From IMG/VR virus record IMGVR_UViG_3300012983_000038, positions 33,240 through 97,239 of that record: a stretch of 64,000 nucleotides of DNA; one strand, 5' to 3'. The position numbers were made by a program, and so were the translations under genes. Under the pieces are notes generated by a model. That model did no database searches. It worked only from the letters and a program-made list of their open reading frames with translations, and was not told the DNA's origin. Shown here in pieces: positions 7,803 to 22,909 of this stretch (the first letter of the stretch is position 1; every line of letters begins with the position of its first letter). The DNA is from a virus (taxonomy: Duplodnaviria > Caudoviricetes).

Positions 7803-10800
7803 ATGATAAGGAGAAAGATCTTAAGGGAAAATAGAATACCAGGAGCTGAGTCATTAACCAGACCTGAGGAAATATCAGAGATGTCGAAGTATCTAGGTTC
7901 ATTAATAGATAGTAAGCATTCTGATCTTGAGTTAGACAATAGGTTAATAAAAGTTCCTGGCAAGTCTACTGGAAAGATACCTGAAATTTCTGAGTTAGGA
8001 AGTCCAGTAGAGAAGATGTTAGAGAGTTTTACTAATTCTGACATAAAGGAGCTGGATACTAAGATAAGAGTAGGTTTAGACATTGAGGATTCTACATTTG
8101 ATTTAGAGAGGGAGAGTTTCAGAAATAGTAGTGCAGTTAAATTAGATATAGCTGATGATCGTGAAATAAAGCTCTCTAGACATAAGGAAGAGGTAGATAT
8201 AAAAGATATTAATAGGTCTAAACATTACGAGGAGTATATAAATAGTAGAAGGAAGGAATTATTATCTGACAAGTCTAATAATGGTGAGCCTAAGTTAGTA
8301 GATAGCAGTAGAAAGTTATTAAGTAATCAAGGGGCAGAAGTTAAGAAGTTAGATAATAAAATAGAGTCACTTAATGTAGATCGAGTTGAAAGTTTAGGTA
8401 GTAGAAAGTTAGAGGAAATATTATCTGATCAAAGTAGGGATAGTGAAATAAAACTGGAGGATGAAGTAAAGCGATTGAAGGTAGGAGAAAGAATATCTAA
8501 ATTGCCTAATAAATCTTCCAAGTTAAATATAGGAAATGATCGAGTTAATTTAAGTGATTTTAAGGATATAGTACCAGGTGAAATAAGTCGAGTATCAAAG
8601 TTAGAAGATTATAGAGACGACATTGATTACAGCAGGGATATTTCACTAGAGGACTATATTGAGGGATTAGGAGGAGAGTTAGAGGATGATAAATTAAGTT
8701 ACTATATAGATCAATTAAAATTAAATACGTCTAATAGTGGATTTGATGGTAAAACTCTTCCTGATTCGATGTTGACTGTACCTAGTGGAGAATTTAAGGA
8801 AGTAGCTGGAAATATTAACAGTTACAAAGATGAATTAGACACTGGGGATAGAGAGGTAGAATTAGGCACATATATTTCGAGTCTAGATGTCAACAGTGGA
8901 TTTAGTGGAGAAGAGTTACCTGATTATTCTTTAACTATTCCTAATAACATTGATGGACCTGTTGAATTAGTTGACTCGGCTTTATTAGTGCCTGGAGATA
9001 TAGAAGAAGTTGGGTTAGAAGATAAGATAGTTAATAGGCCTGATGATAAATTTTCTACATATTTAAAAGATAGGTTAAAAGATTGTCTAAATGATTTGAA
9101 TAGTGATGATGAGATATTTAAGTTTTTGATGGATCTTATAGCTGAAGGAAGAAATGGTGGAAGAAATAGTAGTTGGGAAGAGAAATTAGGGTCATTAGCA
9201 TCTTCTTACTTAAATACTTCTAAGATATCGCCAGCCAGAGTAGAAGAATATTTAAAAGAGTTAGACAAAGTATTAAATGTTGATGTAATTGGAGGAAGAT
9301 CGGGAGACATTCTTTTTGACAATCGGAAGGGAGGCAATCACTTTGAGGAGAACTACAATTTACCTAACAATTCAAATAAGGGGTATATAAACGTAGAAGA
9401 TGCATTTAATAAAAAAGTTCTTGTATTACTAGAGGAGGAGAAGAAAAAAGAAGAAAAGAAGAAAGAAGATGGTCCCTGGTCATTACGAAAAGCTGCAACT
9501 GAGTTAACATTAGAAATACTAGTAGAAAAAAAGTTAATAGAGAGAAATAAGGTTACGGGTGATATAACGTTGCCTGGAAATAATAAATATCTAAACTCCC
9601 TTGCAAATACTATAGTTGGTATTGCGAGTGGAGAGAAAGAAGCTGGCAAGACACTTAATGAGTTTGCTGTAAACACAATAAAAGATGCAAAAGAGGATGT
9701 AAAGAAGCATATAAAGGAAAGTGTTCTATCAGGAGTATCAAAATATACTGGACTAGCTACAAAGAAGATGATGCCTTTGAATAAGCCCCTGAGAGATAGT
9801 GTAAATAAGGGGATAATGAAAGGTGCCAATGAACTAGTAAAAAAGGGTGAAGAGGAGTTTGATAAGTTCTTTAATACTTCAGAGTTAGAGGTTTTAGTAG
9901 GTAAGTCAGATTATGAAGAAGTAGTTATTTCTCCTAAGCCGTCCAATAGTAGTAATAAATCTGGAAGTAGGGCAAAGATAGATAAGCTAGATAAAGAGGT
10001 TGACGAGGAGAATAAATTAAAAGCTACTTATACTACTAGGAATTTCTTTGAGGATTTTTGGAGTTGCCCAGCTGTTCAGACTACATTACAGGATTTATGT
10101 ATTAAAAGTGACAGTTTGAATAGGGGATCTTCAATAAATGACTTGAAAGAACTATTAAAAAATTCTCCATATATTACAACACCTAGTAAATTTGGTACTA
10201 CTGGAATTGCTAATAGAGGAGTTCAATCATTAGACGTTACTAGTTATTGGGAAGTGATATTAACTCCTTATGTTTCTACTGATGAGGTTGTAGGTAATGG
10301 AGGGTATTCATTTCTTCCTTGTATAAATGAGATAAATTTACACAATCTAAAACATCATGGAGTAGCGACTAATTACAGCAGTTGGATTCCGTTTACATCT
10401 TTTAATTTACAAAAAGCTAGATTATCTTCTAAGCAAATACAATTATATTCAGGAGAGGTGAATTTTCCTATAAGTATGGAGAATATGAACGAGTTATTCC
10501 TTACTATTGCGGATGATTCATATAAGTCTTGGAAGTTGTATTTTGAAAAGTGTGCTGAAGTTTCTATATATAACTCAGTTCCACATACTGCAGAATATTA
10601 TGAAAGTAAGAATATGCCAATGTATCCTACTGCAGTTGATAAATCTAGTGTTTGTGTTTCTTATTATAAAAATATAGCATTTAATGTTAAGATATATGTA
10701 ATGACTCCGCAATATGGTACTATAAGAAAGTTTAATTTCTTGACAGTATTGAAGGAATTTGGGGAGGAATATACTGGAGATATTGATGGATCTGCGCCTG

Positions 10801-13800
10801 ATGTATCTCTATCTATGTCAATTGTAGGAGAAATAGATGAAATAGAGGTTCCGTACAATTCCGTTATTGAGCCAGAGGAGTATTATTTGGCAGATTGGGG
10901 AGCGGGTACAGGTGATATTGACTTATACAAAGACTTAACATTAGATGAATTATTAGAAATTGTCGATAGTGGTGAATATTTAGTTGGACATGAAGTAACT
11001 AGAAATATAGATGGGTATTTTGATGGAGAAGGTGTAGAAGGGTATTCAAATAAAGTACCTAGAAAGCTGCCTAATGGAATTAACTTAGATGATTTAGAAG
11101 TCTTTAATATTGACACTACCGTATATAAGAGAGCAAGTAATATGCAACCTTTGTACGATAAGGATAAGTGTGGAAAGTGTGGATATGGTACTTCAGAGAT
11201 ATTAATTGCAGGAGGATTAGGTGTAGGAGTAAGTCATCCAAAACAACCTAGAGATGCTTATAACTGGGTATATTGTCCTGAACATTCTTATGGAGATAAT
11301 AAGCCGGGTAAGTTTTTGGAAGATTTTGGCTGGATTTACTTAGGAGAAGGTCTTGCAGGAGAGAAGTCATTAGAATTAGAGCCTGGAGATTTATGTCACT
11401 GTAAGCCTGCAAATAGTCACTCTTACGGTCATATTTGTATATATCTACCTGATCGTACTGGAACGGAAGGAAAGTCGTGGGTATCTGATTTTAAGCAAGC
11501 CAATTCAGTTGTATACTCTGATGTAATAGAGGAGATAATTAATGGAACACTGGACAAGAATACTGTTACATATTGGAGATGGCCGAAGAGAGTTATCGAT
11601 GGTGAAAAGAGATTTATGAGCTTTGATATAGTAGAGACAGAAGTTATTCCAGCTGAGTTAAGTAGTAAAGATAGTTCGGCATCAGGTAAGTTTATTGATC
11701 CATTAGAGCCAGAAGGATTTACATCTCTCATGTCCCTCAATAATTATAAGCCATTTGATGATAGTGTTAGAATATTGGATGTAGATAAGATAAATGAGTT
11801 TGTATCTACTAAGAGCGAGAATGACCTAGTTAACGAAAAAGCTGCACGTGCTGTAAGTGAGATGTTAACTTTAGGTGGATTAGTAGAAGGAGAAGACTTT
11901 ATTTATACATTATCTAGGGAATGGAGTGACAAGTTATCTAATACAAGTTGGTATAAGATAGGTTGTGGTTATCCTCCAGCAGATATACAGGCAGGAGATT
12001 TAATGTGTGTAAAAGCTATTCATTTTGGTCAAGCTGTAGAAGATTTAGGATATGTTGCTTATTTTAATGGAATAAGTTGGATATCAGAGAATGTTCAAGA
12101 AGGATGGTTAAGAGCTGCTGATGTTTGGACAGAATTAAGTGTAGTCAGAGATTGTTATACATATTGGAGATGGCCTAGAAGGATATACGATGGAGAGTTA
12201 ATAGAAGATGCAGTAGGAGGTTCAGATAGTGATATTTGTGACTATATGTTTGAAGAGCTTATTCCAGAGGGTGCAGTATCTCCTTTATTGAAATCAGAAA
12301 ATGAAGAGGATGAAGAGAGTGATGAAACAAAAATAAAGGATGTATCAGAGGTATTTAATGTAGATGCTGCTATTAGTTTCATACAGTCAAATATTGAAGG
12401 AGTAAGTGAGAGTAAAGGAACTGCTTCTAGTACTATGCGTGATATATTGAAAAATGGTACATTAAGTATTAATAAATCATATGAGTTTACGCTAGCTAAG
12501 GAGTGGAGAAATACTTTACCTCAATATGGTTGGTATAATATAGGTAGCAGCTATCCTCCAGTTAACTTATTACAGCCTGGAGATATAATGGTAATAAGTG
12601 GCTTACCTGAATATTCATTTGGACATGTTGCAATTTGGACGGGAGAGTATTGGGCATCTGACTTTAATCAAGGCGATAATTGGAGAGTATTTGAGAATTT
12701 AGGTTATGGAGGTGTAGAAAGATGGTATAAAAGGTGCTATACTTATTGGAGATGGCCTAAGAGAATTTATAATGGTGAATTGATATTAGATGTATCAAAT
12801 CCATCGACTGAACCTAGTATCTTCATAAGAGAAAGTAGTCCTTCAAATACATCTGTTAATTTAAATCCTACTATTGACTATGAATATCCAGTATTACCAT
12901 TGCCTACGATAAAAGAAGTTAGCGAAGAGTTAGATGTTAAAATGGCAAGTGACTTCTCTAAAGCTACTATAAATAACAGTATTGGTCACGGTTATGCTGT
13001 ATCATCTGTCTTTAATGTGTTAGAGGCAGGAGGATTAAGTGATAAAGAAGCACTAATAGATACCTCAAATGGAATTATTATTGCTCGCACTTTATATGAC
13101 TTATTACCAGATATAGGTTGGTATTTGATAGGTAAAGGATATGTTCCGGAAGATATTGAAGAAGGTGATATCATGGTAATTGATGGAATCTCAGGCAGTG
13201 AACTAGGACATGTTGCATACTGGAATGGCACTAATTGGATATCTGACTTTAAGCAAGAAGGATGGATGATATTTAGTGATGTGTATAAGCCAGAGGAAGT
13301 AGAGAGTATAGTTACATATTGGAGATGGCCGAAGAAGAAAATGCCTGACTATGTGGAATTAGAAGACTTACCTATTATTGAAGAAGATAGTCCTAAAACA
13401 AGTGAAATCTGTGATGATAATAGATATATATTCCCACCAGAGGAGTATGACTATCCTATTGTAGAGCATGAAACTGTTGTAGTGGAAGAGATTTTGAATG
13501 TCATCAAGGCCAATAAACAGTCTTATAAGATTCTTGGAGAGAATAGTACAGGACATGCAGTTGAATATGTATTAAATTTCCTAAGAGCTGGTGGACTGTT
13601 GAATATAGGCTTGAGCAATGATGAGTTAAAAGGTGTAACATTCGAGTGTTTGAAGACACACTTGACTCAATATGGATGGTATGAATTTGCAAAAGGATAT
13701 CCACCTACTGATCCTAGTTGTTTGTATCGACTAGAAGAGGGAGATATTATGTTAATCGATCACTCTGCATTAGGACATATTGCATATTGGAATGGTATAA

Positions 13801-15062
13801 CTTGGGTATCTGACTTTAAGCAAGAAGGATGGTTAGTATTTAAAGACATTAATACTGTAAGTGAAATAGACTCTAAGGTTTCATATTGGAGATGGCCTAG
13901 AAGGATATACAATGGAGAGTTAATAGAAGATGATGAGATTCCAATTATGAAGGATGAGACTGTTACTCCGGATAGTGAGATTTGTGACAATGCTGGAGTA
14001 GATATGTTCCCACCTGCTGGTTATGAATATCCTTCATTTGAATACGTTGAAAGAGAAACTACAGAAATACTAAATGTCAATAAATCTAATGAATTCTCCA
14101 ATAATATAGTAAATAATAAAAGTACAGGTAAATCTATTCCTGCTGTATGGAAAATATATGAGGCAGGAGGGTTAACTAAGAATGAGGCATTGATGTATAA
14201 TGATATTGAGAAGGAAATGCCAACAGTCAAATACCTTCTTGATTCATTACCTGAGAATGGATGGTACATGTTTGCTAATGGGTTCCCGCCTGATAATATT
14301 TCAGAAACAGTTCATACATTAGAGCAAGGTGATTTGATGATAATAGATCATAAATTAGGACACATTGCATATTGGAATGGGTTGAATTGGATATCTGACT
14401 TTAAACAAGAAGGATGGATGGTATTTGATGATTTAAAGTCTACTGAAGAAATAAATTCTAAGGTTTCATATTGGAGATGGCCGAAGAAATATTCAGAAGA
14501 TACAGATCCAGATGAGCCAGATGCAGATAGTGATATTTGTACTGTAGATATTTCGCCATTACCTGAAGACGGTTATCAATATCCATCAGTAATACTAAAA
14601 ATTAAAGAGGTAGTACAGCCATTGTTTACTAATCAATCAAATATAGCATCCCTAGAAGTTACTAGTCTAGAGAGTACTGGATTCGCTAGATCTTCGGTAT
14701 TTAATATTCTAAGAGCAGGAGGATTAGGAGGATTATCTGAACGCCAAGGATTAAATTATACTGAAGAAGAGCTGAAGAATATGACTGCTACATATTTGAG
14801 AGGTACTTTGAATCAGAGAGGATGGTATCAGTATGGTTTCGGATATCAACCATTAGATCTGAAAGAAGGAGATATTATGTTAGTAGAAAGAGAATTAGGA
14901 CACATTGCATATTGGAATGGCACTAATTGGGTATCTGATTTTAAGCAAGAGGGATGGTTAGTATTTGAAGAGTATACTACGCAAGATGACATTGAAAAGA
15001 ATGTTACTTATTGGAGATGGCCTTGGAGAATTGATAAAAACGGGACAGAAGAATTAGATTAA
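7803..15062 (+). CDS. Giant tail-associated protein: N-terminal repeats + tube/baseplate-tube-like domain + 7 tandem NlpC/P60 (CHAP-like) peptidoglycan amidase domains
   Basis: 2419 aa; tube-like segment about 10220-10830 (YWEVIL..ELFLTIADDSYKSWKLYFEK..VKIYVMTPQ..DVSLSMSIVGE); seven repeats with AGGL..GW..GD...GH(I/V)A..W(V/I)SDFKQ..YWRWP. Confidence 0.75.
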   Translation: MIRRKILRENRIPGAESLTRPEEISEMSKYLGSLIDSKHSDLELDNRLIKVPGKSTGKIPEISELGSPVEKMLESFTNSDIKELDTKIRVGLDIEDSTFDLERESFRNSSAVKLDIADDREIKLSRHKEEVDIKDINRSKHYEEYINSRRKELLSDKSNNGEPKLVDSSRKLLSNQGAEVKKLDNKIESLNVDRVESLGSRKLEEILSDQSRDSEIKLEDEVKRLKVGERISKLPNKSSKLNIGNDRVNLSDFKDIVPGEISRVSKLEDYRDDIDYSRDISLEDYIEGLGGELEDDKLSYYIDQLKLNTSNSGFDGKTLPDSMLTVPSGEFKEVAGNINSYKDELDTGDREVELGTYISSLDVNSGFSGEELPDYSLTIPNNIDGPVELVDSALLVPGDIEEVGLEDKIVNRPDDKFSTYLKDRLKDCLNDLNSDDEIFKFLMDLIAEGRNGGRNSSWEEKLGSLASSYLNTSKISPARVEEYLKELDKVLNVDVIGGRSGDILFDNRKGGNHFEENYNLPNNSNKGYINVEDAFNKKVLVLLEEEKKKEEKKKEDGPWSLRKAATELTLEILVEKKLIERNKVTGDITLPGNNKYLNSLANTIVGIASGEKEAGKTLNEFAVNTIKDAKEDVKKHIKESVLSGVSKYTGLATKKMMPLNKPLRDSVNKGIMKGANELVKKGEEEFDKFFNTSELEVLVGKSDYEEVVISPKPSNSSNKSGSRAKIDKLDKEVDEENKLKATYTTRNFFEDFWSCPAVQTTLQDLCIKSDSLNRGSSINDLKELLKNSPYITTPSKFGTTGIANRGVQSLDVTSYWEVILTPYVSTDEVVGNGGYSFLPCINEINLHNLKHHGVATNYSSWIPFTSFNLQKARLSSKQIQLYSGEVNFPISMENMNELFLTIADDSYKSWKLYFEKCAEVSIYNSVPHTAEYYESKNMPMYPTAVDKSSVCVSYYKNIAFNVKIYVMTPQYGTIRKFNFLTVLKEFGEEYTGDIDGSAPDVSLSMSIVGEIDEIEVPYNSVIEPEEYYLADWGAGTGDIDLYKDLTLDELLEIVDSGEYLVGHEVTRNIDGYFDGEGVEGYSNKVPRKLPNGINLDDLEVFNIDTTVYKRASNMQPLYDKDKCGKCGYGTSEILIAGGLGVGVSHPKQPRDAYNWVYCPEHSYGDNKPGKFLEDFGWIYLGEGLAGEKSLELEPGDLCHCKPANSHSYGHICIYLPDRTGTEGKSWVSDFKQANSVVYSDVIEEIINGTLDKNTVTYWRWPKRVIDGEKRFMSFDIVETEVIPAELSSKDSSASGKFIDPLEPEGFTSLMSLNNYKPFDDSVRILDVDKINEFVSTKSENDLVNEKAARAVSEMLTLGGLVEGEDFIYTLSREWSDKLSNTSWYKIGCGYPPADIQAGDLMCVKAIHFGQAVEDLGYVAYFNGISWISENVQEGWLRAADVWTELSVVRDCYTYWRWPRRIYDGELIEDAVGGSDSDICDYMFEELIPEGAVSPLLKSENEEDEESDETKIKDVSEVFNVDAAISFIQSNIEGVSESKGTASSTMRDILKNGTLSINKSYEFTLAKEWRNTLPQYGWYNIGSSYPPVNLLQPGDIMVISGLPEYSFGHVAIWTGEYWASDFNQGDNWRVFENLGYGGVERWYKRCYTYWRWPKRIYNGELILDVSNPSTEPSIFIRESSPSNTSVNLNPTIDYEYPVLPLPTIKEVSEELDVKMASDFSKATINNSIGHGYAVSSVFNVLEAGGLSDKEALIDTSNGIIIARTLYDLLPDIGWYLIGKGYVPEDIEEGDIMVIDGISGSELGHVAYWNGTNWISDFKQEGWMIFSDVYKPEEVESIVTYWRWPKKKMPDYVELEDLPIIEEDSPKTSEICDDNRYIFPPEEYDYPIVEHETVVVEEILNVIKANKQSYKILGENSTGHAVEYVLNFLRAGGLLNIGLSNDELKGVTFECLKTHLTQYGWYEFAKGYPPTDPSCLYRLEEGDIMLIDHSALGHIAYWNGITWVSDFKQEGWLVFKDINTVSEIDSKVSYWRWPRRIYNGELIEDDEIPIMKDETVTPDSEICDNAGVDMFPPAGYEYPSFEYVERETTEILNVNKSNEFSNNIVNNKSTGKSIPAVWKIYEAGGLTKNEALMYNDIEKEMPTVKYLLDSLPENGWYMFANGFPPDNISETVHTLEQGDLMIIDHKLGHIAYWNGLNWISDFKQEGWMVFDDLKSTEEINSKVSYWRWPKKYSEDTDPDEPDADSDICTVDISPLPEDGYQYPSVILKIKEVVQPLFTNQSNIASLEVTSLESTGFARSSVFNILRAGGLGGLSERQGLNYTEEELKNMTATYLRGTLNQRGWYQYGFGYQPLDLKEGDIMLVERELGHIAYWNGTNWVSDFKQEGWLVFEEYTTQDDIEKNVTYWRWPWRIDKNGTEELD
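8150..9050 (+). repeat. Degenerate ~16-18 aa tandem repeats (about 15 copies) in the N-terminus of the 2419-aa protein
   Basis: EIKLSRHKEEV, EPKLVDSSRKL, EIKLEDEVKRL, ISKLPNKSSKL, VSKLEDYRDDI, DISLEDYIEGL, EVELGTYISSL, PVELVDSALLV etc. Confidence 0.6.
11095..15030 (+). repeat. Seven tandem ~190-aa NlpC/P60-like amidase repeats
   Basis: YWRWP ends each unit near 11586, 12177, 12760, 13332, 13900, 14485 and 15025; nucleotide identity visible (tggtatctgactttaagcaagaaggatgg, tattggagatggcc). Confidence 0.9.
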
Positions 15063-15081: not shown

Positions 15082-17589
15082 ATGTATGTAAATTTAGGAA
15101 ATATAGAATTGTACAGGAATAATTCTAGTGGTATAAATGACTGGATGATATTATCTGAAGTAGTAGATTCCGGAATGTCGTATGAAAAGCCGGTATATGT
15201 TAGGACTATTGAGGAGTTAGATTCATGGTTTGGCAAGGAGTTTAGTTCTTATAGTTACTTTAGAGAGTTACTATCATCTAGAGTTACTTTATATTTGTAC
15301 AAGCCTATATCAACTAAAGACTATAAATCAGAGGACTATATTGACTACTCTAATTTCTTTGATTATACGAATATTACTTTATATTCTGAAGACGTAAAGA
15401 TATTAGAGCTGCTGAAAAATGACTCTAGTAATTGTATTATCAGGGTTGTAGACGGCGGTTCTAATTTCTATGCGTTAGATGAAAATAAGAAGTTTTATGG
15501 AATTAGGGAGAATGAGATAGGGGATCGAGTAGTAATAAATGAAGAAAATCCGATACCTAGACATAGACTTCCTGATTTTGAGAAAGTGTTAAGTGAATTA
15601 GGAGGAATATCTAAATACAAGTTGGAAGGTGATTCTGAGATTTACATATGGACAGATATTGAAAACGATGGATTTTACAGTTTTATGGGAGTTAGTAATC
15701 TTCCTCAAAATGTAGAAAAGTTATCAAGTTCATTAAGTAATAGGGATACGTTATTGATTTTTAATAATAGAAGTATAATAAAGGAAGTTCACCCTCAATT
15801 AGACAAGAGTTTAGATTTTACTCGATTTGATGATGTGCCTGAAATAAAACTGAATGAATCATACTTAAAATACGTAGATTCAAGTAAGTTAGAAGAGGGT
15901 ACACAGACATTTGCTATAGACATTTACCATTTATACTCACCTTTTACAGAAATTAATACTGAGTCTGGGTATATAGTAGTTCCATCAGTAAAGAATGTTC
16001 GTGAAGTTAATGGTGAGTTAGTATATGATAATTACTTGTATGTATTTAATGGAGATACTAGTTGGCAGAATTCAGTTAAAGAAGATTATTATATTTCGAA
16101 GATAGATATTAATAATTTTGATCAATTTGTAGATTCATTGAGTGATATTGGGTATTTTATTAGGAGGGAAAAAGATGAAAATGGCCAATCTAAGTTAATA
16201 GCTGTATCAGATGTAGTAATACCTGTGAGAAAGTATTATAATTTAGATAACATTTCTATATATGTTCGACCAAGTAAGGAGATATCTGATAAAATATTAA
16301 GTAATTATTTTATAGGCAATAAGGAGTCAGGGATTAGGTTTTATAGTAAGACCATTGGAGTAGGTTCAGAGGTAGATGAAAGTTCTAAAATAAAAGTAAA
16401 AGTAGAGTATTCAAGTTCAGAGGCCAATAGATGTAGAATAGTTATAACCAGGTACGGATATAGTGAAGTATTTGAAGGGCCGTTAAGTAGTGATAAGTTA
16501 GGAGAGGAGAGGTTAGATTATAAAATATCTAAGGAGTCCAAGCTAGTTTATTGTGAATTTGGTGCAAGTTTAGATACAAAGTTAGATTATAGTGGGGAAT
16601 ATAAGTTAACGGGAGCAAAGAAGGAGCTATATAGTCCTGACATGTATTTGAAGTCTTTAGATTCTATATTTAATGAGTCATCTACGTCAGCTAATATAGA
16701 TTTCTTTTTAGTACCGAATAAGTATAAATATTTCGACATTAATAAGACGAATAAATATATTGGATACTACGAGATTTACGAAACTTTTTTAAAATACGCT
16801 AAAAATAATAAGTGTCAATTTTTAATAGAGAATATTGGACAGCCTGCAGATAAAATAGAGACAGTAGATAGGATTCCGTCAACAGAGGATGGTAAGTCTG
16901 GAGTAGTATATTATGTTCCTAGTTTAGACATGTACTCTACTATATTGAACGGAGTAATGAAAATTTTAATCAATAGGCCTGTAATATCGATAATCAAAAA
17001 TGGAGGGGATTATATATTCAACTATAACAAGGATAAAGAAAATTGGTTAGTATATTTTCATCGATCTATGTTAATTAGTGGAAGAATAAAGAGACCTGGA
17101 TATTATTTATTCTTAAAGAGCATTTTATATAATAAGTTTGGGGAATCGGAGAACAGAATACTTTATACATCTAGCATAAATGATAATGATCCCTACGAGT
17201 ATCAGAAAATAGAGGGACAATTTGAGAAGTACAAGAGCAATTTTCTGACAAATAATAATCACATGTACTATTATAAGAAATACTTTAATGGTTCAGATTA
17301 TACTACTACAATTTGGATGAGATTTGTTATTAGTAAAATTTTCAGAGAGTTAGATAAGAACAAGTGGAGATTACTGTCAACTAATTATGTAGGCAAGACT
17401 AGGGATATATTGTCGTCTATAATGAGTAATATAAAGAATTCATTTTCGATAGTAGATGACATTAATATTACAGAATTTAGTCCTACACAAAATACAAATT
17501 CGTTAAAGATTGGTATTGAGACGAAGGTAAATGACTTAATAGATAATGATATTGAGTTAGATATTACAATTAATTATAACACTTATTAA
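15082..17589 (+). CDS. Second, divergent tail-sheath-like protein
   Basis: 835 aa; N-term KPVYVRTIEELDSWFG..YFRELL..VTLYLYKP and C-term WMRFVISKIFREL...IVDDINI...NSLKIGIETKV resemble sheath terminal domains; directly upstream of the tube gene. Confidence 0.6.
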   Translation: MYVNLGNIELYRNNSSGINDWMILSEVVDSGMSYEKPVYVRTIEELDSWFGKEFSSYSYFRELLSSRVTLYLYKPISTKDYKSEDYIDYSNFFDYTNITLYSEDVKILELLKNDSSNCIIRVVDGGSNFYALDENKKFYGIRENEIGDRVVINEENPIPRHRLPDFEKVLSELGGISKYKLEGDSEIYIWTDIENDGFYSFMGVSNLPQNVEKLSSSLSNRDTLLIFNNRSIIKEVHPQLDKSLDFTRFDDVPEIKLNESYLKYVDSSKLEEGTQTFAIDIYHLYSPFTEINTESGYIVVPSVKNVREVNGELVYDNYLYVFNGDTSWQNSVKEDYYISKIDINNFDQFVDSLSDIGYFIRREKDENGQSKLIAVSDVVIPVRKYYNLDNISIYVRPSKEISDKILSNYFIGNKESGIRFYSKTIGVGSEVDESSKIKVKVEYSSSEANRCRIVITRYGYSEVFEGPLSSDKLGEERLDYKISKESKLVYCEFGASLDTKLDYSGEYKLTGAKKELYSPDMYLKSLDSIFNESSTSANIDFFLVPNKYKYFDINKTNKYIGYYEIYETFLKYAKNNKCQFLIENIGQPADKIETVDRIPSTEDGKSGVVYYVPSLDMYSTILNGVMKILINRPVISIIKNGGDYIFNYNKDKENWLVYFHRSMLISGRIKRPGYYLFLKSILYNKFGESENRILYTSSINDNDPYEYQKIEGQFEKYKSNFLTNNNHMYYYKKYFNGSDYTTTIWMRFVISKIFRELDKNKWRLLSTNYVGKTRDILSSIMSNIKNSFSIVDDINITEFSPTQNTNSLKIGIETKVNDLIDNDIELDITINYNTY

Positions 17590-17606: not shown

Positions 17607-18206
17607 ATGGCAAAGAAATCGAACACTGTTACTAGTTTGGTCAGATCTAGTGACATGCATATGAAGTTTGTAGATTACCATGAGTCATATAGAGAGAACA
17701 ATAAAGAGTTTCTAAGAGGTGATTTGTGGCAATTTGACTTTGTAAATCCTCCAAAATTAGCATACTATCCAGGAGATGATATTATTCACAAGCGATTGAA
17801 TACAGTAAATATTGCAACAGATAGTAGTGTTAATGGATTTGAGAAGAGAATGCGAGGTAACTACGTAATTAGACAACAGACGGGACAATCTACTGCAGGA
17901 AGCTTGGCACTCTCATTCATTGACAGGGAAGATCAAGCTATTTCATTCTTTGTAGATGATTGGAAGCAGAAGGTAGCAGATAGAGATACTAAGTACTCAT
18001 TTAGAAAAGAGGATTTAGTATGTGACTGTGAGATGTTTATTCTTAATTCATCTCGTGTTGATGTTAGACACTTAGAGTTTTATAATTGCAGTTTGGTAGA
18101 TGCTCCATTAGACGAGAGTGGTATTGATGCAGATGGTTCAGATAGATCAGATGTACAAGTAAGTATGGCATTTGAACATTACTCTCGTGAATTCTTAAAT
18201 GTATAA
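17607..18206 (+). CDS. Tail tube protein (T4 gp19-like)
   Basis: 199 aa; LWQFDF..GSLALSFIDREDQAISFFVDDWKQ..CEMFILNS..LEFYNC..DVQVSMAFEHY is a tube-fold pattern. Confidence 0.8.
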   Translation: MAKKSNTVTSLVRSSDMHMKFVDYHESYRENNKEFLRGDLWQFDFVNPPKLAYYPGDDIIHKRLNTVNIATDSSVNGFEKRMRGNYVIRQQTGQSTAGSLALSFIDREDQAISFFVDDWKQKVADRDTKYSFRKEDLVCDCEMFILNSSRVDVRHLEFYNCSLVDAPLDESGIDADGSDRSDVQVSMAFEHYSREFLNV

Positions 18207-19069: not shown

Positions 19070-19412
19070 GTTTTTGAAAGTAGATAATATTGAACATTAT
19101 ACATTTAAGACATTATTAGAGCTCAAGAATTGCTATGAAGATTTTATGGAGAAGTCAGAAGGTAGTGATCCAGATTTCCCTATGTCTAATTTTGGAGGTA
19201 CTAAAGGTGCCAAGGTAGGAGGTATGAACATTCACAGACTCGATGATGAAGAGCGTGAAGAGTTTAAGGAGCGCATAGTTAATAAAGAAACGGGAAAAGT
19301 AAATAGATCTGAAAAACCTGAGGCAAAAGAAGAGTACTATGAAGACAAAAGAAAGAAGATGAGTAGCGAAGAGAGAGCTTTACAATTTCTTAAAAACAAT
19401 AATTTGAGATGA
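19026..19412 (+). CDS. Second tail assembly chaperone (T4 gp51 / GT-like), overlapping the upstream gene in the +1 frame
   Basis: Frame open from 19002; candidate starts GTG 19026 or ATG 19044; LMDLKFFLNKFLKVDNIEHYTF; ATGA overlap with the tape measure gene. Confidence 0.55.
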   Translation: MTIAQLMDLKFFLNKFLKVDNIEHYTFKTLLELKNCYEDFMEKSEGSDPDFPMSNFGGTKGAKVGGMNIHRLDDEEREEFKERIVNKETGKVNRSEKPEAKEEYYEDKRKKMSSEERALQFLKNNNLR

Positions 19413-22400
19413 GTCAGGGTCAGAACGAATTAGATAACAGGACAAATCAGATAATTTCTGGTAAAGCTGCTAATGGAAATGATTATGCTGGATTACAAGC
19501 TGCGCAACAACAGCTTATGGCAATTCAAGCAGAGCAGCGACAAAATTTAAATGTTGCTAGGGCAGAGGCTAATAATCTAAGTGCTCAAAGGAATATATTA
19601 GCTCAGGCAGGTGCAATGGCTGCAATGACATCCCAAGCTAATCAAGGTGGTCCAGTTCAAGGAAGACCATTAGTAGTTAATCCTGCTACTCAAGCTGTTC
19701 TAGGAAAATTTGGAGTAGGTCAACCGAAAACTATTAGATCACAAAATCAACAAGTTACTCCTCAAAATGTAGTAATAAATAATAACTATACTACTAATAA
19801 TAATGTTACTGTCCCTGCTAATATTGGAGGACCGATTCAAGGTAGGCCACTTCAATTTAATAAGCCACAAGAGGATAGTATGGGTAAGTTCAGAAATTGG
19901 ATGAATGCTGCCCTAGCTAAACAAAGTGAGGAGGCCCAGAAAAGAGATCAAGAGTATATTAGGAGAGAATGGTCTTTGACTAGATCTGCTAATAAAGTAA
20001 TTAAAAAGATAGAGGATTATGCTAAATCATTTGGAGAAAAAATTGATCCAAAGAGAATTGGTTCTACTATCGGATCTCAAATTAAGTCTATATTATTAAT
20101 TTTCGGACTTGGTGTATTATCTGCTAACTGGAAGAAGATATTAACAACGGTAGCCAAAATTGAAAGAAATATTAGAGGCTTTGCGGATTATTTAGGTATT
20201 TTTAGTGATGATCCTGGAAAATCTAGATTCCATAAACACGTAATTAAACTTCTAGGTGGTACTGATGAAGATGAGAATGCTTACGTTGCCTTAAAGAAGT
20301 TGTTTGTTGGAGATGGAAGTGGTAAAGATGGTGGCGGAGTATTTGGAACTGTTAAAATGTACTTCGAGGATCTCATTGCAGATAGAAAGAATGCAGTTGA
20401 AAAAGCCTTATCTGACAAACCAAAGGTAGGATTAAATGTTGCTGATTCATTAGGAAATATTGCTAATTATATTGGTGGTATTATTAGTGCAGCATTTACG
20501 GGAAGTAAAGGTTTAGCCAACTCTACTGGAACTAAGATTGCTAATGAAGGTAGGGCTGAGGCTTCTAGAGAATTTTCCACTCAATCTTATCGTAATGGAG
20601 GTAGCTTTAGAACAGATAGTGGTGAAATGGTTGATACTACGATAGGTGTTGGTTCTCACTTAGCTGGAAATAGTAGTGGTAGATTCTTTGAAGGCATGTA
20701 CAATAAGAATTCAAATGAGTATAGTGTCGGATTAGGATCAGATATTACTAGATTGATTAGTGATGCTCAAAAAGGTCATGTAAAAACTAATCAAATGGCT
20801 GCTACTATGATTGACTTACAAAATGCTGCCAGAAATAGAGAATATGTTGCTGTTCCTACTTCATTAGTTGACAGTCTATTTTCTGCTAAAGAGGTTGCGA
20901 ATTTCAAGAGACAGAAGATGGTTCGTGATGCATTCTTTAGGGTAGTAGCAGTTAAAAAGTCAGCTAAGCAAAGAGAATTAGATAAGGCAATATACGAAAC
21001 TCAATATCACGCTGAGTATGCTGAAGGTGTAGGTTTTGTTGGTGATCTTGGAGTTACGGCGGCATTATCTACTGTAACTGCTGGATTAGGATCAGTAGGA
21101 GTAGCTGCTAAAGTTGCTTCAAATTCAAGTAAAGTTGCTAATTTTGTTGGTGGTACAGTAAAGAAAATTAAAGGAGCTAGAGCAGCGGCAGCAGCTAGAA
21201 GTGCAACAGCTAAAGGTATTGGTAAAATTAAGACGGCAGGTAATGTTGCTAAAAAGGCTGCTGGAGTAGGCACAATGGCATATTATACTGCAGATAATAC
21301 TATAGATAATTTCAATGAATCTGCGGTAGCTATTAAAGAAAGTAGATTAAGAGATAAGTCAGAATCTAGCTTTATTAATAGATTGATTGGTGCAGATTAT
21401 AGTAAATTTGCAAACTTCGCATCTGAATATACTACAGAGATTAGACGAGTTCCACCAAAAGAAGCAGGCGGAAAGGACGTATATCATCTTTACGAAATTA
21501 ATTATGCAATGGTCCAGGAAATTAACAAGAGATTATCTGGACAATATGATGCCTCTACTGATAATGCTGACTTCTTTACTGGACTTGAACAGAATCTACT
21601 AGGAATGAGTGGTTCTAAGGAAATCTATATTACTGGAGGAAAAACACAGGCTGAAACTTGGGAAGATTACAACAATATGGTAGCTGAAAAAGAGTCTAGA
21701 GATCAATTAAGAGAAGCAAATTCAGAGAAAAATGAAAGAGCACAGAGATCTAAGGAGGCTATTGGAGAAGTTGTTGGAAATGTTACTAATGCAGCTAAGG
21801 AATATGGTAATAAAGTAAAAGATGCATTAATAGAAAAAGGAAAAGAGGCTGCTGCTAATGCTGAGGCTGGTGCATATAACATGAAACAGAACCTTAATAA
21901 TTGGGTAAAGAACGGTAAGCCAAAAGAGGGTGACGATAATTATTACTACGGCGGATCTTCTTCATCATCATCTAGCAGCTCAAGTTCTCCTAGCAATCAA
22001 ACTAATGGAAAAGGATCAATTATCAGTAATAGATACGTCAATACAGATAGAATGACTAAGGCTATAGATTACTTGAAAAAAGAGCTGGGAATTAATGATG
22101 TACAAGCCGCCGGTATTGTAGGTTGTTTATATGCAGAATCTCACTTGAATCCAGAATCTATTAATAAAGATGAGAAAGCAGGTGGAAATCCTAATGTAGA
22201 CAAAAATTATTACGGAGCTGGATTACCTCACTGGACACATAAGGAGAGAAAAGATAAAATTCTTAGCTACTTACAAGAAACTTCAAAGACTAAGGGAACA
22301 AAGATAGAAGATTTTGGATTTGAAGACCAATTAAGAGCTGTTGCATGGGAAATTAAAAATGATAGGAAAACATTCTTAAAAGTACTAAAAGAAAAGCAAA

Positions 22401-22909
22401 CTGTAGAAGATGCTGCCGATGCTACGTTAAGAGGGTATGAAAATGGTACTACTGATAAACTAGCAACTGTAGATAATATGGGTTGGAAAAGATGGAGTGA
22501 AGGAATGTACGATAGAACTAATGGTCGAGGTCATCATGCACTAAAGGCTATTCAAGTATATAATGAAGATTCTAATGGTGGATCCCCTCAATTTACTTAC
22601 TCTAATAATGTAAACCCTACTAGCATATCAGTTAATAAAGGTGGAAATTCTAGTAGTCAATCAAGCAGCTCAACAGACGTAGCAAGAACTGTTAGTAATA
22701 TTGATAACGTTTCTAATACTGACATCTTAGTTAGCATGAATAATAATCTAGTTAATATTAGTTCTAAGCTAGATTACGGTAATGAGATAGCTAGAGTTAA
22801 TACAGAAGTTGCAGCCGCTCAAGTAGATGCTATTAATAATTCTAATGGTTCTAAAAGTGTGGCAACTCATTTAGCAAAAAAAGAGGTAATCCGTAGCAAA
22901 ACAAGTTAA
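19409..22909 (+). CDS. Tape measure protein with C-terminal phage tail lysozyme domain
   Basis: 1166 aa; Ala/Gln/Gly-rich helical protein with a hydrophobic segment; C-term AAGIVGCLYAESHLNP..YGAGLPHWT..R..EDQLRAVAWEI..YE (Phage_lysozyme2-type). Confidence 0.8.
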   Translation: MSQGQNELDNRTNQIISGKAANGNDYAGLQAAQQQLMAIQAEQRQNLNVARAEANNLSAQRNILAQAGAMAAMTSQANQGGPVQGRPLVVNPATQAVLGKFGVGQPKTIRSQNQQVTPQNVVINNNYTTNNNVTVPANIGGPIQGRPLQFNKPQEDSMGKFRNWMNAALAKQSEEAQKRDQEYIRREWSLTRSANKVIKKIEDYAKSFGEKIDPKRIGSTIGSQIKSILLIFGLGVLSANWKKILTTVAKIERNIRGFADYLGIFSDDPGKSRFHKHVIKLLGGTDEDENAYVALKKLFVGDGSGKDGGGVFGTVKMYFEDLIADRKNAVEKALSDKPKVGLNVADSLGNIANYIGGIISAAFTGSKGLANSTGTKIANEGRAEASREFSTQSYRNGGSFRTDSGEMVDTTIGVGSHLAGNSSGRFFEGMYNKNSNEYSVGLGSDITRLISDAQKGHVKTNQMAATMIDLQNAARNREYVAVPTSLVDSLFSAKEVANFKRQKMVRDAFFRVVAVKKSAKQRELDKAIYETQYHAEYAEGVGFVGDLGVTAALSTVTAGLGSVGVAAKVASNSSKVANFVGGTVKKIKGARAAAAARSATAKGIGKIKTAGNVAKKAAGVGTMAYYTADNTIDNFNESAVAIKESRLRDKSESSFINRLIGADYSKFANFASEYTTEIRRVPPKEAGGKDVYHLYEINYAMVQEINKRLSGQYDASTDNADFFTGLEQNLLGMSGSKEIYITGGKTQAETWEDYNNMVAEKESRDQLREANSEKNERAQRSKEAIGEVVGNVTNAAKEYGNKVKDALIEKGKEAAANAEAGAYNMKQNLNNWVKNGKPKEGDDNYYYGGSSSSSSSSSSSPSNQTNGKGSIISNRYVNTDRMTKAIDYLKKELGINDVQAAGIVGCLYAESHLNPESINKDEKAGGNPNVDKNYYGAGLPHWTHKERKDKILSYLQETSKTKGTKIEDFGFEDQLRAVAWEIKNDRKTFLKVLKEKQTVEDAADATLRGYENGTTDKLATVDNMGWKRWSEGMYDRTNGRGHHALKAIQVYNEDSNGGSPQFTYSNNVNPTSISVNKGGNSSSQSSSSTDVARTVSNIDNVSNTDILVSMNNNLVNISSKLDYGNEIARVNTEVAAAQVDAINNSNGSKSVATHLAKKEVIRSKTS

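Follow-up and report, generated by a model that had tools for sequence, protein, structure and literature searches.

The window analysed here covers 64,000 nucleotides of the IMG/VR virus record IMGVR_UViG_3300012983_000038 (Duplodnaviria; Caudoviricetes). It contains a gene, P0001, whose protein of 2419 amino acids (aa) ends in seven tandem domains related to Tae3, an amidase of type VI secretion systems (T6SSs). These domains stand behind a domain with the fold of tail tube and Hcp proteins. The first repeat has a complete catalytic triad, and the six others have lost the cysteine; for short, we call the former live and the latter dead. An earlier note on this DNA, made by a model from the sequence alone, had described the same region as seven NlpC/P60 amidase domains, one active and six catalytically disabled, on a tail-tube-like protein. 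Its observation is correct in every detail. Of its interpretation, in which pseudo-enzymes attached to the tail through a tube-fold domain bind peptidoglycan and position one catalytic domain, the structural part is supported.

A database copy of the P0001 protein, one residue different, comes from a 101-kb contig. We refer to the part of the protein that precedes the repeats as the carrier, and to the proteins that share this part as the carrier family. The gene is laid out as follows:

7803..15062, plus strand: whole gene (P0001), 2419 aa, a single uninterrupted open frame
7839..7910, plus strand: N-terminal motif PG..LTRPEEI..LSKYL, common to the whole carrier family (consensus of alignment A2)
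7920..10019, plus strand: variable region, with no family match and a length that differs widely among relatives
10035..10847, plus strand: tail-tube/Hcp-fold domain, aa ~745-1015 (AF2 model, Foldseek, VIA, BFVD)
11088..11609, plus strand: repeat 1, aa 1096-1269, with the sole full triad, Cys1126/His1210/Asp1229 (alignments, family profile, AF2 model)
11178-11180, 11430-11432 and 11487-11489, plus strand: codons of Cys1126, His1210 and Asp1229 in repeat 1
11754..12200, plus strand: repeat 2, aa 1318-1466, Ala1348/Tyr1417/Glu (in SEN), all three catalytic positions lost (alignments)
12333..12782, plus strand: repeat 3, aa 1511-1660, Ala1541-His-Asp (alignments)
12906..13355, plus strand: repeat 4, aa 1702-1851, Ala1732-His-Asp, cysteine-free domain (alignments)
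13467..13922, plus strand: repeat 5, aa 1889-2040, Ala1919-His-Asp (alignments)
14043..14507, plus strand: repeat 6, aa 2081-2235, Ser2111-His-Asp, cysteine-free domain (alignments)
14595..15047, plus strand: repeat 7, aa 2265-2415, Ala2295-His-Asp, cysteine-free domain (alignments)

Tae3-like repeats and their catalytic residues

The seven repeats are homologous, with 26-48% pairwise identity and 16 invariant columns in alignments made with MAFFT and with a hidden Markov model (HMM). In both alignments the catalytic Cys, His and Asp each fall in a single column, which allowed us to read the triads directly: C-H-D in repeat 1, A-Y-E in repeat 2, A-H-D in repeats 3, 4, 5 and 7, and S-H-D in repeat 6. 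The Cys, at the start of the first core helix, is thus present in repeat 1 only and is replaced by A, A, A, A, S and A in repeats 2 to 7. The His, and the Asp of an SDFKQ motif 12-19 residues later, are found in repeats 1 and 3-7, not in repeat 2. The motifs on which the earlier note relied are all where it placed them. GKCG starts at aa 1124, with the codon of Cys1126 at 11178-11180, and YGHI at aa 1208, with that of His1210 at 11430-11432. EKAA, KGTA, HGYA, TGHA, TGKS and TGFA start at aa 1345, 1538, 1729, 1916, 2108 and 2292, their last letter being the Cys equivalent, and the loss of the His in repeat 2 is visible in GYVAY at aa 1416, which puts Tyr in the His column. YWRWP occurs seven times in the protein. 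The conserved scaffold that the note described is also there; the dead repeats keep the family signature and depart from it at the nucleophile and in the helix after it. Among the dead repeats, a possible nucleophile at the Cys position is found in repeat 6 alone (Ser2111); repeats 4, 6 and 7 are entirely free of cysteine and thus have no internal Cys nucleophile.

Assignment to the NlpC/P60-CHAP superfamily, also proposed in the earlier note, is borne out by profile and fold comparisons. A profile of the seven repeats, compared with PDB sequences, gave a single strong solved match, 4hz9_A (E 3.4e-11), which the fold-search table lists as Tae3 of Ralstonia pickettii in complex with Tai3. The Cys column of the repeats aligns to residue 23 of this chain and the His column to residue 81, followed by an identical W-I-S-D-F-K-Q. 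Dong et al. 2013 reportedly give Cys23 and His81 as the catalytic dyad of Tae3. Fold modelling covered repeat 1 among the seven, with an AF2 model of pLDDT 62 and pTM 0.68. Its top match in the Foldseek PDB search is Tae3; VIA returned the CHAP endolysin Lys2972 at Z 8.0, Tae3 at Z 7.5 (24% identity) and Tse1 at Z 6.2. About 40 of the top 50 VIA matches are NlpC/P60, CHAP or Tae/Tse wall hydrolases, and the remainder, near the bottom of the list, are mostly other papain-like cysteine peptidases. The comparison with Tae/Tse and CHAP structures that the note had suggested therefore designates Tae3 as the nearest solved relative, CHAP and Tse1 also matching the repeat-1 model.

The likeness to Tae3 (PDB 4HZ9/4HZB) extends to a series of common motifs: the G.C at the helix start, GD, GH and W.SDFKQ. 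Tae3 is nearest by profile and ties for the best fold match. However, Tae3 is a single-domain secreted effector of ~120-140 aa with an adjacent immunity gene, while the phage protein has seven copies, six of them Cys-less, an extra C-terminal YWRWP strand motif, a fusion to a tail protein and no evident immunity gene.

PHROG 38472, 'endolysin', matches at 3e-33. No Pfam model reaches significance on single repeats; Amidase_5, CHAP and Tae4 give weak, sub-threshold Pfam matches on repeats or relatives, and with the whole protein as query Pfam returned only Gelsolin and DUF2793. Searches of the protein in NCBIfam and, by tblastn, in 50,697 phage records gave no match. The repeat profile, in turn, finds 1280 other proteins at E<=1e-3 among 1.84 billion representative proteins. 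We re-aligned the domains of the best 150 of these 1280 proteins, obtaining 136-157 residues per catalytic column. The Cys column is conserved at 0.99 over 136 full-length domains of other proteins; the His and the S, D and Q of SDF.Q are conserved at 1.00 over 157 family domains, and GD and the G preceding the His at 0.98-1.0. Exceptions to the family triad are almost solely the dead repeats of P0001 and of P0003, a protein of 1836 aa encoded on a 39-kb contig where the genes stand in the same order. In family members the domain occurs together with LysM, GH19 or glucosaminidase modules, an association that speaks for wall hydrolases. The only named cellular relative of the domain belongs to a flavobacterium.

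Given this conservation, repeat 1 is likely the only peptidoglycan endopeptidase or amidase in the array, as judged from its residues. Repeat 1 also contains a perfect 9-nucleotide tandem duplication (AAGTGTGGA x2) at 11166-11183, seen in a TRF run on the gene, which encodes KCG-KCG. It places an extra cysteine, Cys1123, three residues ahead of Cys1126; P0003 has a single Cys there.

The tube-fold carrier and its genomic context

Between the N-terminal motif and the tube-fold domain, the carrier is acidic and repetitive at aa 40-440 (22% D+E) and of mixed charge at aa 441-740. A search with aa 740-1095 retrieved, besides two longer proteins, more than 100 of 924-1309 aa (family range 924-2996 aa); many come from human-gut contigs of 160-390 kb. 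In alignment A2, the family shares the N-terminal LTRPEEI..LSKYL and an acidic, repetitive middle whose length is very variable between close relatives. In the more than 100 relatives, 14-58 residues follow the ~270-aa tube-fold domain (~105 in two cases). Since these proteins end just past the tube-fold domain, the array appears to be a C-terminal add-on.

The tail-tube-like domain announced by the earlier note is recovered as a tube-type beta-sandwich in an AF2 model of aa 740-1095 (m8e978f5d5ea9, built with 29 family members), which has a pLDDT of 69 overall and 75-91 in the beta core. The Foldseek PDB search of this model is headed by a T4 neck-tail chain (9mkb_q3, E 2.1e-6) and a T4 baseplate-tube chain (5iv5_BG), with E-values from 2e-6 to 2.5e-5; next come tube chains of phage P1, the Algoriphagus extracellular contractile injection system, PVC, AFP, lambda and phiKZ. 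VIA gave 5iv5_BG at Z 9.5, 9mkb_AC at Z 7.9 and Hcp proteins at Z 6-6.7, and almost all of its top 50 are tube, Hcp, initiator or terminator chains. BFVD added 148 matches at E<=1e-3, many of them named tail tube protein. At the sequence level, the A2 profile found nothing meaningful among PDB sequences, and hhalign detected no similarity between A2 and the tube protein of the phage itself. The tube fold is therefore seen at the structure level only.

Two known systems are close to this architecture. The tube-fold accessory chains of T4 (5IV5, 9MKB) are the best structural matches of aa 745-1015; unlike the carrier, they have neither the ~740-aa N-terminal region nor a lytic array, and there is no detectable sequence similarity. 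In T6SSs, 'evolved' Hcp tube proteins (Hcp-ET) carry C-terminal toxin domains, including members of the papain-like peptidase clan (PMC6099711). P0001 resembles them in placing an effector after a tube-fold domain in a contractile injection machine. However, Hcp-ET proteins belong to T6SSs, lack a long N-terminal extension and have one toxin domain with an immunity partner; Hcp and the carrier domain share the fold (Z ~6-6.7), with no sequence relationship shown.

The genes downstream of P0001 belong to a tail module:

15082..17589, plus strand: sheath-like protein, 835 aa (Atlas leads only)
17607..18206, plus strand: tail tube protein, 199 aa (phrog_45, E 1.8e-7)
19409..22909, plus strand: 1166-aa protein with a Phage_lysozyme2 domain (PF18013, 'phage tail lysozyme') at aa 881-1017 (Pfam E 2.7e-17)

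The 835-aa open reading frame (ORF) has no Pfam, PHROG or NCBIfam match; its Atlas leads are the Phage_sheath_1/1C and phiKZ_gp29PR clusters, with a feature score of 0.94-0.95 and a TM of 0.5-0.6 by target. In the tail region, PHROG, Pfam and NCBIfam leave nearly all tested ORFs unmatched. Among 20 neighbouring ORFs, PHROGs gave only phrog_45 on the tube ORF and four families of unknown function on a 1149-aa ORF, and NCBIfam gave sub-threshold matches on one neighbour only. The Phage_lysozyme2 domain suggests that the tail module carries two different wall hydrolases, the 1166-aa protein being, next to P0001, the second candidate in the virion. The order 135-aa gene, 145-aa gene, carrier, sheath-like gene of ~800 aa and tube gene is kept at two loci, L001 (that of P0003) and L002. 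The immediate neighbours, the 145-aa gene upstream and the sheath-like gene downstream, also adjoin relatives without the array; the context is that of a phage tail module.

The full record has 97,239 bases, of which the window represents positions 33240-97239, and contains no cellular genes. CheckV puts its completeness at 26%. This figure and the 313-390-kb size of the contigs of carrier relatives point to a jumbo phage of about 370 kb.

Could the protein act outside the tail, as a head-internal protein, an ejected protein or a soluble lysis enzyme? We consider such a role very improbable: the tube-fold domain and the conserved synteny with sheath-like and tube genes both speak against it, and the size and long repetitive N-terminal region of the protein are unlike those of endolysins.

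Origin and rarity of the array

Over the N-terminal 1100 aa, P0003 and P0001 are 85% identical. The four repeats of P0003 read C-H-D, A-Y-E, A-H-D and A-H-D in turn. Repeats 1, 2 and 3 of the two proteins pair one-to-one, with 37%, 64% and 45% identity respectively. The shared live-plus-dead order implies that the layout predates the split of the two phages. Repeats 4-7 of P0001 are closest to each other (40-48% identity) and 37-41% identical to repeat 4 of P0003; they look like a later expansion. TRF found no long-period DNA tandem repeat in the gene, which argues for old duplications rather than a recent amplification of the array.

Between the two phages, the fully dead repeat 2 is better conserved than the live repeat 1 (64% vs 37%), and the catalytic Cys of repeat 1 is kept across 63% sequence divergence. 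Both the preserved live-dead-dead-dead order and the higher conservation of repeat 2 indicate that the dead repeats are under selection.

The fast evolution of the live repeat (37%, against 45-64% for the dead ones) is what an arms race would produce, and the earlier note had raised the idea that the dead repeats decoy host inhibitors. They would then soak up periplasmic proteins similar to Tai3 and protect the live domain. Tai3 inhibits Tae3 through a loop inserted in the active-site cleft (PMC6099711), and the dead repeats keep the cleft residues. However, a virion would bring tens of domains at most, probably too few to titrate an expressed periplasmic protein, and we saw no immunity-like gene or T6SS context beside the gene, in an analysis that included no search aimed at Tai3. 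We hold this explanation to be hardly probable, and prefer to see in the dead repeats pseudo-enzymes selected for wall binding or spacing.

A comparison of repeat numbers across related phages, also suggested in the note, gives seven copies here, four in P0003 and no array in the more than 100 carrier relatives. When IMG/VR was scanned with the repeat profile, 22 viral loci came up. All have one copy of the domain, carried by small ORFs of lysin size or by large ones of 1159-2205 codons; no further arrays appeared. Among the 150 best representatives, a Cys-less copy accompanies a live one in only three other giant proteins, P0006, P0014 and P0072 (loci L025 and L026), which have 2554-3275 aa, lie on unannotated, phage-like contigs and show Ala or Ser in place of the Cys of the dead copy. 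The pairing of dead and live Tae3-like domains thus recurs outside this phage lineage. In two of the three proteins, the dead-live pair flanks a glucosaminidase domain. Arrays of four and seven copies are so far unique to this phage pair.

Possible roles of the dead repeats

We lean, without great assurance, towards a tail-anchored peptidoglycan hydrolase in which one live domain is accompanied by a selected array of pseudo-enzymes for wall binding or spacing. P0001 would be a structural component of the tail in an uncultured jumbo phage. Its tube-fold domain is most likely part of a ring at an end of the tube, and seven Tae3-like domains are fused behind this domain as a C-terminal add-on. 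During infection, repeat 1 would open the host cell wall locally by cutting peptide links. Repeats 2-7, kept by selection, most probably hold the wall through its peptide stems or, like beads on a string, serve as a spacer to position the live domain. Were the ring hexameric, each virion would present 6 live and 36 dead domains.

Papain-like wall hydrolase domains have been described in other tail proteins. The baseplate hub 'cleaver' of the Staphylococcus phage 812/K has such a domain within a structural protein of a contractile tail (PMC13433997). There, a single live domain sits on the hub, whereas here a tube-fold carrier encoded before the sheath bears one live and six dead domains. Non-catalytic versions of the fold also exist. 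The weld protein of phage 812 contains a CHAP-fold clip domain devoid of catalytic residues, for which peptidoglycan binding has been proposed and which masks the live hub domain (PMC13433997). The same paper, citing Both et al. 2014, mentions RipD of M. tuberculosis as a non-catalytic, peptidoglycan-binding NlpC/P60 domain. In both cases, as in the array, a papain-like wall hydrolase fold minus its catalytic residues is reused for binding or structure. However, RipD and the 812 clip are single domains without most of the triad, while the array has six tandem copies, five of which lose the nucleophile only, in cis with a live paralogue.

Could the dead repeats be purely architectural? They would then have no affinity for peptidoglycan and serve as a fibre, a spacer, an oligomerisation scaffold (neck whiskers or a lumen-filling chain) or a shield for the live domain until infection. 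The 812 clip domain, both structural and masking (PMC13433997), is a precedent, and the carrier gene lies just before the sheath gene, the usual place of terminator or neck proteins. The carrier family already has a long, fibre-like N-terminal region of variable length, and the number of repeats changes from four to seven between close relatives. On the other hand, the dead repeats keep nearly all invariant residues of the cleft (GD, GH, W.SDF.Q) bar the nucleophile. A spacer would not need these residues, and repeat 2 shows that they can be lost. We regard a purely architectural role as unlikely, though worth serious consideration.

Several points weigh against the tail-anchored hydrolase with its pseudo-enzyme array. 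The place of the protein in the virion is what we infer from the gene and its predicted fold. The gene order puts the carrier where terminator or neck proteins usually lie, and its modelled structure resembles both baseplate-end and neck-end chains of T4; the tube-fold domain may sit at either end, and a neck position would put the array at a great distance from the wall. The two AF2 models have moderate confidence (pLDDT 62 and 69), with middling fold Z-scores of 7.5-9.5. The helix after Cys1126 reads CGYGTSEIL, against a family consensus of CAxYVRxAL, and this divergence, together with the inserted KCG, means that the activity of repeat 1 is not assured. Finally, five of the six dead repeats keep the His and the Asp, and an invariant cysteine in the linker precedes most of them, so that residual or re-wired catalysis could take the place of pure binding. 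This cysteine belongs to an S-x-I-C motif, identified by comparing the linkers:

12231-12239, plus strand: S-x-I-C before repeat 3 (Cys1479)
13404-13412, plus strand: S-x-I-C before repeat 5 (Cys1870, codon 13410-13412)
13977-13985, plus strand: S-x-I-C before repeat 6 (Cys2061, codon 13983-13985)
14532-14540, plus strand: S-x-I-C before repeat 7 (Cys2246, codon 14538-14540)

The motif is likewise found ahead of repeats 3 and 4 of P0003, its S, I and C being invariant in six linkers of the two phages. It lies 49-62 residues upstream of the Ala/Ser position and is usually followed by a P-x-x-G-Y-x-Y-P-like stretch. It precedes six of the seven dead repeats that retain His and Asp in the two phages; it is missing before both copies of repeat 2, in which His and Asp are also lost, and before repeat 4 of P0001.

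Repeats 3-7 could conceivably be re-wired rather than dead: the linker Cys, some 50 residues upstream, would fold into the cleft of the next domain and replace the lost nucleophile, making repeats 3 and 5-7 live, or Ser2111 would serve in repeat 6, which has Ser-His-Asp, so that the protein would hold several active sites. In favour of such a scheme, every repeat preceded by a linker Cys retains His and Asp, and repeat 2, which lacks the linker Cys, has lost both. The motif, at a similar spacing in its six linkers, was found upstream of none of 136 ordinary Cys-containing family domains in other proteins. Circular permutation of the catalytic Cys is reportedly known in the NlpC/P60 superfamily (Anantharaman and Aravind 2003), which we also counted on this side. 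However, repeat 4 retains His and Asp with no Cys in either its linker or its domain, the correlation comes from only about three independent repeat lineages, and Ala at the nucleophile position is a classic mark of pseudo-enzymes. We therefore consider active sites of this kind improbable in repeats 3-7. The linker Cys could instead be a structural feature of the repeat unit, engaged for instance in inter-chain disulfides, and is less likely a substitute nucleophile. Were the re-wired scheme true, P0001 would act as an endopeptidase with several heads, and its Tae3 active site would be of a split or permuted kind not seen before.

Under the reading we favour, a tail-anchored hydrolase with a pseudo-enzyme array, the protein unites a T6SS-type amidase domain, a tail/Hcp tube fold and a wall hydrolase turned non-catalytic, each of which is known separately. 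It is an unusually clean case, with one live and six nucleophile-less paralogues per chain, an arrangement kept in two diverged phages and missing in more than 100 relatives. Nature thus offers a system in which to study the role of dead wall hydrolases in a virion, whether in avidity, spacing, masking or re-wired catalysis. For engineered lysins, the dead repeats could also supply compact stem-peptide-binding modules.

A last observation concerns annotation. 'Gelsolin repeat' is the only precomputed Pfam label on the database copy of the protein, and the whole protein scores 31.3 bits with this model, against a cut-off of 21. On single repeats, the match has E-values of 0.008-0.07 and covers ~30 residues of the GDIM.ID..GHIAYWNG hairpin (GD...GH). 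We reject the label as a motif-level artefact because of the homology to Tae3. The matching segment lies at 13701-13796, in repeat 5, and in the equivalent parts of repeats 6 and 7.

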